From: Eledone cirrhosa
Taxonomy: Eukaryota
Reading direction: 5' to 3'
NCBI GenBank assembly: GCA_964016885.1
Contig: OZ024742.1
Location: 346,332,001 to 346,396,000 of the forward strand
Length of the DNA stretch: 64,000 nucleotides
Part shown: positions 23,941-63,276 of the stretch, piece after piece
Position numbering within the stretch: position 1 is the stretch's first letter
Layout: every line of letters starts with the position of its first letter
Position numbers and translations under genes: made by a program
The notes under the pieces: generated by a model
What the model saw: only the letters and a program-made list of their open reading frames with translations
Databases searched by the model: none
What the model was told of the DNA's origin: nothing

Positions 23941-24306
23941 GATGATAGGACTGTGGTCCCTATCATTAAATCACCCAAGACACCTCCAACGCGATATACC
24001 TTGGAGGAGGCCAGCTAAACCTGCACAGGTGTAAGCTGTCACACACACACATGTGTCTGGATGTGAATGTTTGTGTACGCATGCGTGTCTGTAATGTATA
24101 CTACCATACATTCTACCCACCCAGCATTCTATTCGAAATTCTACCCAACATTCTATCCGCTATTCTACTAATAATCTACTCAATATTCCCTACGAACCCA
24201 CCACGAGTTAGGGTTCAACATGAAATGGACCTGTTATTTTTATCTAAAGTCATTTTTTCCAATTCCAACCCGCCCATCCCCTCAATCTATCTTATTTATC
24301 ATTCTT

Positions 24307-24342
24307 TCTTCTGATGAAGGACTAGCATCTGAAACGTTAAGA
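24307..24342 (+). ncRNA. Minimal type I hammerhead ribozyme motif
   Basis: TCTT-CTGATGA-A-GGA ctagca TCT-GAAA-CG-TT-AAGA; stem I tctt/aaga; loopless palindromic stem III (AACGTT), which would require dimerisation. Confidence 0.7.
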
Positions 24343-24806
24343 CCCTCTTCCTGCTATATCAAGCGTTAACCTAATATATCCCTTCCATATACTGTACCGA
24401 TTGTGTTGTTATTTCTGTTTAACTTTTATATACATACATATATATATATATATATATATATAGTTAGGGAAGCAGAAAATTGCTTATTGTAATCCAGAAG
24501 CAGAAAATTGTTTATTTTAATGCTTACCTGTTTTAATGCTTACTCTTTTATATATATATATATACAATAAATCCTCCACCCGAGTGAGCCTACAGTAACT
24601 CCGCGTTACATTCCCTAGATATATATATATATATATATATATATATAGATATATATATATATATATATATATATATATATATATATAGATATATATATAT
24701 ATATATATATATATATATATATATATATATATATATATATATATATATATATATATATATATATATATATATATATATATATATATATATTAAAATAACA
24801 GATTAA

Positions 24807-24857
24807 AGTTTAAGCAAAGAATCGCTGCTTTCACCCTTAAGGGGATCTTCTGAAACT
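24807..24857 (-). ncRNA. Hammerhead-like motif with variant core CAGAAGA
   Basis: Minus strand: AGTTT-CAGAAGA-tCCC cttaa GGGt-GAAA-GCAG cgattct TTGC-TT-AAACT; all three stems pair. Confidence 0.55.
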
Positions 24858-24943
24858 AACTTATCGGTTGGAAATTCACTGGATAGTCAACCGATAAGGT
24901 ATGATTTTCATGGGTATGTCTCTATTTATAAAACAAACTTTGT

Positions 24944-25006
24944 ATTTTATCTGATGAAAGCGTACCAATGTTGTCTTGGTTACCCTTGAAATATATATAA
25001 TGAAAT
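24944..25006 (+). ncRNA. Type I hammerhead ribozyme motif
   Basis: ATTTTAT-CTGATGA-aagcgtaccaa..ttggttaccctt-GAAA-TATATA-TA-ATGAAAT; 7-bp stem I, palindromic stem III. Confidence 0.78.
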
Positions 25007-25069
25007 AAATATGGTTTTATAAATATAGTTTCCATTTATTTAATATAATTGAATATTTACTCCAGTAAT

Positions 25070-25279
25070 TTGTTGAGTGCTCTAAATCAGTTATAAAAAT
25101 TTATGTTTGTCGGATTTCCAACAAATTAAATACAAATTCTACTTATATATATATATATATATATATATATATATATATATATATATATATATATATATAT
25201 ATATAAGTAGAATTTGTATTTAATTTGTTGGAAATCCGACAAACATAAATTTTTATAACTGATTTAGAGCACTCAACAA
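25070..25279. repeat. Inverted repeat (about 75-bp unique arms) centred on (AT)n
   Basis: ttgttgagtgctctaaatc...attctactta (AT)n taagtagaat...gatttagagcactcaacaa. Confidence 0.93.
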
Positions 25280-59608: not shown

Positions 59609-60222
59609 CTTCTTCTTCTTCTTCTTCTTCTTCTTCTTCTTCTTCTTCTTCTTCTTCTTCTTCTTCTTCTTCTTCTTCTTCTTCTTCTTCTTCTTCTTCT
59701 TCGCCCACTTATTCCCGGGAGGGTCGTAGGAGCAGAGTCCACAATCACTCTTTCCATCAGGTCCTGTCAGAAGCAACAGTCTCCAATTGATCTGGTAAGC
59801 TCCCCGAGCGAGACCAGCCGAGTTCATACATGTTATCCAACCACCTTGTTAAGGAGTCTACCCTTGGACCTCCTGGTTTTGCCCGTAAAATCTGTCCAGC
59901 GATTCTTTCTCGAGACATTCTAACCACATGCCTATAGTATCGGAACCAGGCTCTACCTAGAGTAACACTTTCATCTCCGAACTACGCACTCTATTGAATA
60001 AAGTTACTCCAAAGACACTTCAGAGGAACCCCATATCGGCCGTTTGTATTCACGAACGTATTATTTCGGTCATTAACCAAAATTTATGACCATAGGTAAG
60101 GGTTGGCATAAATACCGAATTGAAGACAGTGACTTTGGCTGTCACACCTACCTCCCTTTTCCCATTACTGAATGCTGAAGCTGGCGCATTACTGGACCAG
60201 CTTTTTCAATTCTTATACTTAA
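59609..60222 (-). pseudogene. 3' end of an RTE-clade LINE with a (GAA)n tail
   Basis: Minus-strand translation FNSVFMPTLTYGHKFW..IQTADMGFL..VRS..RYYRHVVRM..RWLD, with stops; followed directly by (GAA)n at 59609-59702. Mostly absent from the ORF track. Confidence 0.8.
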
Positions 60223-60984
60223 TTCAGCCCCCCTGTCTTCCATCACTCGTGAACACAACTCCGAAATGATGAAAGACAAAATTGACCTCGACGAGAATTG
60301 AACTCAGAGATCTGGAACGAAGACCACAAAGTAGTTTATCCGACTCTACCAATTCTCCACCTGCTATCTCTATCACTAAGTCTAAATCATTTATAAATTC
60401 CCATTTCACAGCTGGATATCAACAGGATTTACATCACTTTTGGAAAATCTACACACATTTTGACTTTGTTTCTCACAAGTACAATTTCACACACACATTA
60501 TTTCTGTCGTGTAAAACATCTACGACACTAGAGAGGGGATGGTAAGAGTGTGTGTGAAAGAGAGAGGGCGGATATGGGGAGAGAGAGAGCGGGGTGGTGG
60601 TAGTGATTTGAACACTTTATGGAAAGGGGATGGTGTGTTTGTGTGCGTGAGAGAAAGAGAAATACAAAAAGATAGAAAGAACGAAAGAAATAAAGAGTGA
60701 GAGAGAAAGAGAGAGGGAAAGAGAGAGAGTGAGAGAGAACTAAAAGAGGAATGACGTCGATCAAGCTGTATATAGGAAATAGTGTGAGAGAGCACGTGAG
60801 AGAAGAATTATTTTTACGACAAACATCCTCAATTTTTTTGTTCGTAGTTTATATTTATTTGGTTAAACATAAACACAAAAGAGAGCAGCATTAGAAAGAA
60901 CTATAAATGCCATAGATGAGGGGGGGGTGAGGACTATTAGACAAAGAAAGACAAAAAGGAAGAAGGGGAGAGGGTGACAGATCT

Positions 60985-61365
60985 ACACCTCGGTCAGACC
61001 GCTGTTTCGGTTACGCCCCGCAGACAAAATAGTAATGTTATTTCCGCGGACAATGGCCAGTGACAAACACTGTAACAGCCAACCCCATCTCGCGGGGCTC
61101 CTTCGTCAGGCAGGCTGCTATTTATCCGATCTTAGGGAGGTCAGATGTCCGGGGTCCGAGGACGCCTAAGGTCTCGACGGACAAGCTCCGGTATTTACTT
61201 GTCTTCCTGTCTTCTGCATTGTGAGTGTCGTGGTACCGGGGTTTGTACCTGAGGTCACTAAGTTGAAGACAATAACGTGTCACAGCACGCCACAGTCCAA
61301 GTGAGAGATTTACCTCCTTCGAAAGGGGAGAGGGTAATTCGGTCAGGGAGCTTACCGTCACCACA
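60985..61365 (-). pseudogene. Second CRE-like C-terminal fragment, degraded
   Basis: AEDRKTSKYRSL-SVETLGVLGPRT; similar to the 35830 fragment. Confidence 0.55.
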
Positions 61366-62310
61366 GATGAGTAAAATATTCTATTTTGGTAGTTTCAATA
61401 TTTTTATTCGACATATTTTGTTGTGTTGTATCTCTATATATAAAATTATTTGTCTCTCTCTCTCGCTATATATAAATATATATATATATAAAAAAATATA
61501 TATATATATATATATATATATATATATACATATATATATATACATATATATATATATAGGAACATATATATATATACATATATATATATACATATATATA
61601 TATATAGGAACATATATATATATACATATATATATATACATATATATATATATATATATATATATATATATATATATATATATATATATATATATATATA
61701 TATATATGTTCCTATGCATTCTCTAACGGCTGGGCCAAATCAAATCAAATATTAGACCCCGGGAGTGTCAACATGTAATTTTTATTTTCATTTGGATTAA
61801 AACAATATAATATTTATATATCTAAAACAGAGAATGTCTGTATGTCTGTCTGTCTGACTCCCTAAAACTCGAGAACCACTCAACCGATTTTTTTCAAACT
61901 TTACGCATGTAAGTGTGAGTGTTTTGAGCAAAAAATATTTCAAATTTTCAATGCCCTAAAGATCGCATTAGGCGCCGGTTAGCGATCTCTCTCTCTCTCT
62001 CTCTCTCTCTCTCTCTCTCTCTCTCTCTCTCTCTCTCTCTCTCTCTCTCTCTCTCTCTCTCTCTCTCTTTCTTAGTCTGTCTTTTTAGATAGATACATAG
62101 CTATAACGTCGCGCCCTTATAATATCTGTCTGTATGTCTGGCTGTCTGCATTACGACATTATGACAAATATTGTTCTCATTGCTGACGTATTATCTTCGC
62201 TATTTTCCGTTCATTGCCAGAGAACATCTTCACGAACCAAAGTATCGTCTTCCTGTTTTCCTTCGGTTGCAACGTTTTTCGAAATATTTACTTCACAGAT
62301 TGATTCTTTT

Positions 62311-62361
62311 AGTTTCAGAAGATCTCGTTAAGGCTGAAAGCAGCGATTCTTTGCTTAAACT
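62311..62361 (+). ncRNA. CAGAAGA hammerhead-like motif, third copy
   Basis: AGTTT-CAGAAGA-tctcgttaaggct-GAAA-GCAG cgattct TTGC-TT-AAACT; 62239-62380 matches 54467-54615; ends in (AT)n. Confidence 0.48.
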
Positions 62362-62788
62362 TTAATCTGTTATTTTAATATATATATATATATATATATA
62401 TATATATATATATATATATATATATATATATATATATATATATATATATATATATATATATATATATATACACACACAGTTCAAGAGTAACCAATCTTAA
62501 AGAGAGAGATTGAGATAGTAGAGGAGATATGAGAGGAAAGATTGGTGAGTTAGTTAGAAGCCAAAGCGTAAAGGCATGTGCTCAATGTGCAATATGCAGT
62601 AGAAAGCAGCTAGGTGGCTGGGTTCATGCAGAGGTTAGGTGCGCAGAGCTGGAAATATTCATTAGTTAAGCAAAACAAGACCACAAATTTCACAAGGAAG
62701 ACATTATTAAAAGATTGTCAACATATTTAGTTTAATGTAAGGAATGTAGAGAATAATAATAATAATAATATTAATAATAATAATGCCC

Positions 62789-62909
62789 GTTTACAATTGT
62801 TTCGCTACTCCGTATAATATTTCTTGATCAGATGACTATATATCATAATTGATCTGGTTCAGTTGAAAATAATTAACATATTTAAAAAAACAGAGTGGCT
62901 CATCGGAAC
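62789..62909 (-). ncRNA. Hammerhead motif (core CCGATGA, stem II domain of about 95 nt) downstream of the Penelope-like ORF
   Basis: Minus strand: GTT-CCGATGA-GCcACTCTG...CGGAGTaGC-GAAA-CAATTG-TA-AAC. Confidence 0.62.
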
Positions 62910-63276
62910 TCAAAGGAATATAAATTAAAATAATGTTACATAATATAATGTTCCATATATTAGTTTTTACTATGGTGCCTTTGTTTCATCAGCTGTCAGC
63001 CATAATCAAGCAGTACTCATCTGTCGAGGCTGCATTGTGTGAGATCTGCCTATGGGTAACAAGATGGCTGCCAAAGGGCATATTTACCTTACAAATTAGA
63101 GGGTGGTTTCAGGGGAAGTAACTTCTCGAGAGATTAGAGATTGTGTGTATTTTATAGTTATGTGCTAGTATTTAAATTATTTAATTGAGAGACAATGTAG
63201 GGGAGGTAACTTATAATTATCGAGTTGTTCATAGCAATTTAACTTATTAGCTACAATTAGAGATGGGGCTACATGA

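Follow-up and report, generated by a model that had tools for sequence, protein, structure and literature searches.

Type I hammerhead ribozymes of Penelope-like elements and of retrozyme-like units in the genome of Eledone cirrhosa

Type I hammerhead ribozymes (HHRs) have been described in animals both from Penelope-like elements (PLEs) and from retrozymes. Hydra-1_Obim of Octopus bimaculoides is a Hydra-clade PLE with an HHR and a (TA)n target (Craig et al., 2021, PMC8557442), and an anole PLE studied in vitro starts reverse transcription at two internal sites, cuts both strands and leaves a ‘tail’ (Frangieh et al., 2024, PMC11167929). Minimal motifs number ~2,000–9,000 per genome in Schistosoma, coelacanth and Xenopus (PMC4209133), and HHR counts of >6,000 in Acropora, ~5,000 in Mytilus and 126,247 in axolotl have been reported (PMC7229834). 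A retrozyme preprint of 2026 covers 31 vertebrates, three insects and one coral (bioRxiv 10.64898/2026.07.22.740005). Our literature searches on hammerheads with cephalopod, octopus and Penelope found no HHR census for cephalopods, and the main text of a 2026 repeat annotation of O. vulgaris mentions neither hammerheads nor ribozymes. Here we analyse the HHRs of a stretch of 64,000 nucleotides from Eledone cirrhosa (assembly GCA_964016885.1, 3.0 Gb; contig OZ024742.1, C3:346,332,001-346,396,000)—hereafter the window—in which an earlier note, made from the sequence alone, had listed 17 HHR-like folds. Matches to PF14830, the molluscan haemocyanin domain, number 39 in the assembly and are grouped seven to a gene, in keeping with an octopod host.

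The 17 sites sort into 14 families: seven that are ends of PLEs (ten sites), four that lack an open reading frame (ORF) and three placed in neither class. We consider it highly probable that type I HHRs lie near the 3′ ends of PLEs in this genome and that four short protein-free units carrying them are likely to ride on the PLE enzyme as circular RNAs. The element classes themselves—Hydra- and Neptune-type PLE ends and retrozyme-like units without long terminal repeats (non-LTR)—are already known; new here are the scale, the dispersed retrozymes that bear a PLE insertion signature and the non-canonical cores that are fixed only in families linked to ORFs or placed in neither class.

Hammerhead motifs in the window and in the genome

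Motifs were defined by CUGANGA and GAAA boxes, an NUH site and stems I–III in type I order; ribozyme cleavage at NUH is a prediction from the motif. HHR-derived sequence is present at all 17 coordinates, as the earlier note had it, with complete cores at only 12 of them (seven canonical, five variant), decayed motifs at three and half motifs at two. All seven sites put forward as canonical (24307+, 24943+, 28482+, 41170+, 41399−, 41562+ and 47960+) pass the descriptor, and their cut sites are NUA or NUU. A stricter first descriptor, which allowed no mismatch at the base of stem II, found five canonical sites; such a mismatch is present at 28482 and 47960. A similar motif density in dinucleotide-shuffled sequence, which the earlier note had named as refuting, was not seen: none of 100 windowed shuffles contained any canonical type I motif.

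The four cores called variant are so, with a difference between two pairs. The U3-A8 core at 40667 and the U4A core at 24807 pass the descriptor, each being a fixed family trait and matched alone in 2 and 4 of 100 shuffles, respectively; 54546 and 62311, two members of the 24807 family in which stem II is damaged, fail it. Among six sites described as degenerate, three are decayed: 42230 (G5A), 43163 (GAAAC broken) and 59104 (U16.1 lost), the families of the first two being canonical in 13 of 17 other copies listed and 16 of 20 copies, respectively. The site at 62789 is instead complete, a U4C motif whose stem II region is long; it was recognised by eye and fails the descriptor, and the same motif recurs in two of three other full copies; 41877 and 54979 are 5′-truncated half motifs without the CUGANGA box.

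A scan that ignored stem III and U16.1, covering the 590 kb of the genome sample described below, bore out the self-complementary stem III: it was palindromic or a hairpin in 46 of 54 matches (31 perfect palindromes), against 5 of 38 matches pooled from 30 shuffles. The association with microsatellites also held, one lying within 200 nt on the 3′ side of 43 of 50 sampled HHRs (random 22%) and on the 5′ side of only 8 of 50, and the link extends to 16 of 17 HHRs in the window. The supposed lack of common sequence among the stems did not survive comparison, since stem I is common to 24944 and 41399/41562, and 41170 and 47960 are 73% alike over the 55 nt that follow the cut site. In an Rfam E-value scan of the window, the 150 of 186 matches that were listed included no hammerhead family, only microRNA families driven by microsatellites; type I motifs are short and variable, and a descriptor is therefore needed.

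Stem covariation was assessed in 22 copies of the group that contains 24944 (19 of 36 rows anchored on their flanks, those that were near-identical or visibly decayed being omitted, plus three others). Of the cells, 96% pair, and mainly stem II is informative. Two-sided change occurs at seven pairs, a number equalled by 3 of 500 shuffles, and in 26 cells (0 of 500 shuffles), and slid controls reach at most three pairs; the result only leans in favour of the fold because the structure was drawn from these same sequences and the rows are related. Chance matches in AT-rich repeats, or regulatory ribozymes domesticated by the host, might be invoked for isolated sites, given that single variant-core matches turn up in 2–6 of 100 shuffles and that 59104 is near-unique. 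Against this stand the empty shuffles for the canonical set, 410–3,059 first-look candidate copies per family in genome similarity searches, the covariation and a host gene context that was not seen; we give this explanation next to no credence, and for 16 of 17 sites it is refuted.

To place the window in its setting, 59 stretches of 10 kb (590 kb) were sampled at round coordinates on large contigs. They hold 50 canonical type I motifs, or 85 per Mb, compared with none in ten shuffled sets of the same stretches (0.2 per set if a longer loop is allowed). The genome-wide estimate is ~254,000 canonical HHRs (bootstrap 147,000–376,000), or 222,000 when one tandem array is excluded, and the radiation is large, as the earlier note had supposed. 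Its notion of a special local density was not borne out: the chance of at least seven canonical motifs in this genome is 0.31 per 60 kb and 0.15 per 40 kb, and at 85 motifs per Mb the window is a typical sample.

The total of about a quarter million stands above any count in the papers compared, whose descriptors differ, and the 254,000 (85 per Mb) set against ~2,000–9,000 per genome in PMC4209133 is subject to the same difference in descriptors. Were even a small fraction of these ~250,000 motifs to cleave, the genome's intronic and read-through transcripts would feel the effect. A record is not established, because descriptors differ between studies and because there are much higher figures for Schistosoma Sm-alpha, which could not be confirmed.

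Penelope-like element ends and their insertion signature

On ORF links and motifs, seven families are 5′-truncated 3′ ends of ORF-bearing PLEs, six of Hydra type and one of Neptune type: the HHR lies 0.4–1.2 kb downstream of PLE ORFs or their remnants, on the same strand. The tie between type I HHRs and PLEs drawn in the earlier note is thus borne out by ORF links for 7 of 14 families.

The most complete of them is represented in the window by an inverted pair of 3′ ends (41359..41760), with HHRs at 41399-41469 (−) and 41562-41632 (+) and arms that end ~+50 and +134 from the cut site. Elsewhere this family (P0001) has an 808-aa ORF, encoding a reverse transcriptase (RT) and, C-terminally, a GIY-YIG-type endonuclease. 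Of 30 loci, 25 have an HHR 820–1,200 nt downstream of the ORF, 10 have one ~250 nt upstream and, by descriptor, nine have both, an arrangement of pseudo-LTR (pLTR), ORF and pLTR; the unit is 3,707 nt long. The ORF recurs at 55 further loci at 93–97%, and most of the 56 are without a stop, so that the family holds dozens of intact 800-aa RT/GIY-YIG ORFs. Its protein has the Hydra-clade diagnostics DKT, RW, CxCx5C, CxxC..E and CxH and lacks CCHH; CxCx5C is also present in families F, B, H and M, and family G is placed by tblastn similarity and CxxC..E only. Assignment to the Hydra clade is based on these motifs and on a by-eye match to the published Hydra alignment. Pfam gave no match for three Hydra-type ORFs, that of P0001 included, and the sole named relative of the main PLE protein is one from Argonauta hians (37%).

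The other Hydra-type families are more reduced in the window. Family F has three insertions: a 3′ tip at 24791..24860 (−) with the U4A (CAGAAGA) HHR at 24807-24857, an inverted insertion at 54390..54615 (+) with an HHR at 54546-54596, damaged in stem II, and a half motif in its other arm, and a 3′ end at 62184..62377 (+) that ends at (AT)n and has an HHR at 62311-62361, likewise damaged in stem II. The CAGAAGA HHR lies downstream of a Hydra-type endonuclease in 17 of 20 loci, and the core is U4A in 36 of 39 parsed copies. A 540-aa piece of the family F ORF lies ~8 kb left of the window (G000:C3:346,322,001-346,323,621, −). Family B is present as a 3′ end at 24857..25143 (+) with a canonical HHR at 24943-25007 (ATATATAT) and as a short inverted piece at ~25214-25279; an AT-rich untranslated region (UTR) of 1.0–1.2 kb leads back into a Hydra-type ORF 45–55% like P0001, which remains in 8 of 15 loci, in five of them together with the HHR. 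For the 3′ end of family G (40479..40824, +; U3-A8 HHR 40667-40775), 7 of 15 other loci retain remnants of an endonuclease upstream. Family H, very abundant, contributes a truncated 3′ tip (41756..41924, −) with the 3′ half of the HHR only; such remnants were seen in 4 of 20 loci of this family, its core is CTGAGAA or TTGAGAA, and 19 of 20 have a C3-A8 mismatch. In family M (62452..63846, −), the link lies inside the window, where an endonuclease remnant (63325-63738, CNCRYPNEC linker) is followed by the U4C HHR at 62789-62909.

The Neptune-type 3′ end (24215..24426, +) ends at (TA)n and has a minimal HHR at 24307-24342 with an ACGT palindrome and an extra A at 9.1. Its family leads into decayed RT/GIY-YIG ORFs with a Neptune-like CX4CxxC linker; decayed copies show a CSRPCCNTC linker and VYALxCxxCxxxYIGQT, and Neptune is the tentative assignment by motifs, with Nematis a possible alternative.

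Three families are placed in neither class. Family I (42077..42345, −; HHR 42230-42314 with the G5A change, the family being canonical) showed an ORF link in 0 of 20 loci. Family K (54856..55051, −) is a 3′ half motif in the window; the one ORF link among its 20 loci was rejected as an unrelated neighbour, and apparent links for 41170 and 54979 proved to be nested insertions. The third is the decayed HHR at 59104..59150 (−), from an old, divergent family with five weak relatives. In a subfamily of K, the core is CCGTCGA (U4C + A6U) in most of 19 copies listed, with an inversion almost always just 5′ of it; the family is abundant, and this core is predicted to be inactive. Outside the window we noted further HHR families with stem III ACAGTTCTAGTCCTGT, ACCACTGGT or AGTACT, and one with the ACTGC-stem ATATATAT, often as inverted pairs; in the AGTACT family the HHR follows a GIY-YIG ORF by ~380 nt.

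The earlier note had taken essentially all modules for non-autonomous ribozyme retroelements. Those of the window are indeed mostly non-coding and a few hundred bases long, and four families are truly ORF-less, yet seven run upstream into PLE ORFs, in the window or elsewhere, and the 50 sampled canonical HHRs divide into 23 in PLE-linked groups, 12 in the four ORF-less families and 15 unassigned. So sweeping an interpretation is largely refuted and appears hardly tenable; a non-autonomous radiation describes only a minority, because seven families (10 of 17 sites) are ends of ORF-bearing PLEs.

Copies of both classes end at two fixed TA-rich sites, 50–275 nt downstream of the cut and beside (TA)n. 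Measured from the cut, and with loci taken as the top 40 similarity matches, these sites are +51/+134 in P0001, +60/~+143 in the 24944 family (B), +82/+204 in E, +81/+190 in D and +219/+275 in C, and are looser in J, the last four being the ORF-less families. Two-arm inverted loci have a different site for each arm in 11 of 11 cases in P0001, 15 of 16 in B, 9 of 9 in C, 8 of 10 in D and 6 of 7 in E. Of the 21 arms of family E, 19 stop at +82 or +204/207, and 10 are longer than a single unit. Two-site ends with inverted arms are the PLE ‘tail’ signature. The fixed 3′ ends run into (TA)n, in agreement with the (TA)n targets claimed before, and such ends at TA-rich motifs suggest pairing of primer and template.

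In their single ORF with RT and C-terminal GIY-YIG domains, in DKT, RW and CxCx5C without CCHH, in their 3′ type I HHR with a short self-complementary stem III and frequent mismatch at the base of stem II, and in their (TA)n targets, 5′ truncation, inverted arms and one-arm tail, these elements resemble the Hydra-clade PLEs of PMC8557442. They differ from the elements described there in unit length (3.7 kb, against <3 kb), with a 3′ UTR of 1.0–1.2 kb in four families, and in tails of 56–122 rather than 30–40 nt; at least six Hydra-type families occur in one window, against one octopus family in that source, and several are fixed for U4A, U4C, U3-A8 or C3-A8. Their dispersed motifs from truncated PLEs, opposite-strand pairs 100–700 bp apart, palindromic stem III, extra base at 9.1, U3-A8 variant and high diversity within one genome recall the minimal HHRs of PMC4209133.

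We propose that the RT/GIY-YIG protein would nick both strands of a (TA)n tract, that reverse transcription would start at the two internal TA-rich sites and that copying would run back through the ribozyme, usually stopping within a few hundred bases, so that nearly every insertion would leave one or two hammerheads. As copying would start downstream of the cut site and cross it, the template should be uncut or re-ligated RNA. The anole Poseidon element PAc (PMC11167929) is similar in its two internal RT starts downstream of the HHR, its cutting of both strands of AT-rich DNA and a template that crosses the uncut HHR—the last two surmised here. It differs in that the start there is an AC-rich stem-loop non-homologous to the target, in place of the TA-rich motifs of the present elements.

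ORF-less units and their proposed cycle

Four families (those of 28482, 41170, 43163 and 47960) appear to be non-LTR retrozyme-like, with circularly permuted units of 430–560 nt. In the window, family C is an inverted two-arm insertion (28206..28734, +) with a canonical HHR at 28482-28524; family D (40917..41330, +; canonical HHR 41170-41253) is flanked by two (TA)n tracts; family J (43036..43400, −) has a decayed HHR at 43163-43212; and family E (47568..48236, +) spans its 560-nt monomer 1.19 times, with a direct overlap of 110 nt and a canonical HHR at 47960-48039 (+).

Natural cut-to-cut length, taken from the spacing of tandem same-strand motifs, is 427–429 nt in family C (482–492 in a seven-copy array), 483–485 in D, 438–441 in J and 544–589 in E, and tandem units of all four are present somewhere in the genome. 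Sequence downstream of the cut site leads back round to that upstream of it, the longest ATG ORF in families C, D and E is 46–137 aa, and no PLE ORF of their own was found upstream of C, D, E or J. Predicted circular folds of six units from the four families give z of −5.2 to −8.9 relative to shuffled sequence, whereas five length-matched stretches of PLE 3′ UTR lie between −2.5 and +0.2. All 40 scored loci of family E stand at ~100%, and dozens of 560-nt copies are 100% identical, which marks the family as very young. It also forms an array of 26 HHRs in 30 kb (G000:C28:45,833,001-45,863,000), a candidate source locus with a higher-order period of ~2.5 kb, in which runs of 2–5 units are separated by gaps of 1.4–1.5 kb.

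That period points to amplification at the DNA level at this array, and local tandem growth from a PLE terminus has been proposed (bioRxiv 10.64898/2026.07.22.740005). The units might accordingly be seen as satellite DNA that retains the HHR as a relic of a PLE end and has spread through extrachromosomal circles or unequal crossover. Among the copies dispersed over many chromosomes, 5′ ends vary, 3′ ends are fixed at two positions next to (TA)n, and inversions match the pattern of ORF-bearing PLEs; as a general account, spread as a satellite is very unlikely.

As in the metazoan retrozymes of PMC7229834 and bioRxiv 10.64898/2026.07.22.740005, the units are a few hundred bases long, ORF-less and low in GC, carry one type I HHR each, occur as tandem arrays and monomers, are predicted to form self-paired circles and co-occur with PLEs. 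They differ in length (430–560 nt, against 150–450 in PMC7229834; lengths of up to 972 are given in the preprint) and in that most copies are dispersed insertions of 0.2–2 units at (TA)n with the two-site tail and inversions of PLEs. Mobilisation of animal retrozymes by PLE proteins has so far been argued from co-occurrence and pLTR homology; since ORF-less units here carry the two-site tail, inversions and (TA)n signature, they provide direct genomic evidence for the link.

Their multiplication probably involves a circle made by self-cleavage and ligation. In such a cycle, tandem copies would be transcribed and would cleave themselves (those with a short palindromic stem III as dimers), the products would be ligated into circles, and a Hydra-type protein would reverse transcribe these for more than one unit length.

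The state of the cores bears on this proposal. The core has stayed canonical in each of the four ORF-less families, compared with three of the seven that are ORF-linked, and fixed non-canonical cores (U4A, U4C, U3-A8, C3-A8, CCGTCGA) are found in four of those seven and in one family placed in neither class, a contrast drawn from small numbers of families. According to PMC3088659, the U3-A8 covariant is active, and U4C, though viable in a viroid, cuts slowly in vitro; for U4A and C3-A8 we predict poor cutting. The ORF-less families might instead be passengers of PLEs that move as uncut linear read-through transcripts, their ribozyme idle or protein-binding and no circle being formed. Tandem arrays (the 26 HHRs on C28, seven in another) would supply permuted multi-unit templates, PLE insertion in vitro does not require catalysis (PMC11167929), and large families are fixed for cores (U4A, C3-A8, CCGTCGA) from which slow or no cleavage is predicted. 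Such linear passage is harder to square with the canonical cores of the ORF-less families, few as these are, and with whole-unit self-pairing, which is strong only in ORF-less units, as in the retrozyme circles of coral, mussel and axolotl (PMC7229834); we judge it unlikely.

Several points weigh against PLE-driven movement as circular RNA. Inactivating the ribozyme leaves insertion by the anole PLE undiminished, and its template is mainly uncut RNA (PMC11167929); moreover, 8 of 9 Xenopus retrozyme dimers remained uncut in vitro (bioRxiv 10.64898/2026.07.22.740005). Most single motifs here are predicted not to fold into a full hammerhead as monomers, and the inverted pair at 41399/41562 would form a 160-bp hairpin on read-through. 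No autonomous partner of the four ORF-less units was found among 11 PLE ends, to which they are alike only in short AT-rich words, unlike retrozymes with pLTR homology (Li, Clavereau & Pollet, 2026); PLE families beyond these are numerous in the genome. The lack of an ORF link in 13–20 loci is weak on its own. Top-match queries, sometimes spanning an inversion, favour inverted and longer copies and so inflate the share of inverted copies, leaving end positions unaffected. Finally, in contrast to metazoan retrozymes with expressed RNA, these units are known from genome sequence, from which cleavage, transcripts and circles are predicted.

A stronger version holds that the ORF-less units are true circles, inserted at (TA)n by Hydra-clade PLEs, that must keep an active ribozyme, and that coding PLEs spread with non-cutting cores, in families that would then number tens of thousands of such copies; we advance this tentatively, as somewhat short of probable. 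If true, the genome is a natural experiment on hammerhead function. The sole reconstituted PLE inserts without cleavage, and the young families and family-wide core variants lend themselves to paired tests of cleavage, circularisation and trans-mobilisation.

In two ORF-less families, the octamer ATGCAAAT may be a promoter element of the small nuclear RNA type, as in newt satellite 2. It stands on the sense strand ~120–190 nt before the cut site, at 43213-43400 (−) in the window, as repeats upstream of the family J motif, and in family C units. Three exact copies lie in 870 nt, against a background of 0.08 per kb, and the octamer is kept in a divergent tandem subfamily and absent from families D and E.

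Other repeats of the window

The window is composed of repeat DNA with many microsatellites; no tRNA genes were found in it, and the HHR scan found none of these motifs in positions 1–24,300. A 46-bp satellite in 273 copies occupies 1-12,548, a (GTGGT)n array lies at 31052-32121, and a 41-bp minisatellite has 65 copies at 37493-40160. Decayed pieces of non-LTR retrotransposons (14822-17478, 21265-23165 and 32317-32979) carry a CCHC finger and the motif of a restriction-like endonuclease and are R4/Dong-like by their motifs; the single piece compared with Pfam gave no match. Pieces of Helitron Rep and PIF1 helicase ORFs lie at 44208-47664 (−), their start adjoined by the 560-nt element of family E.

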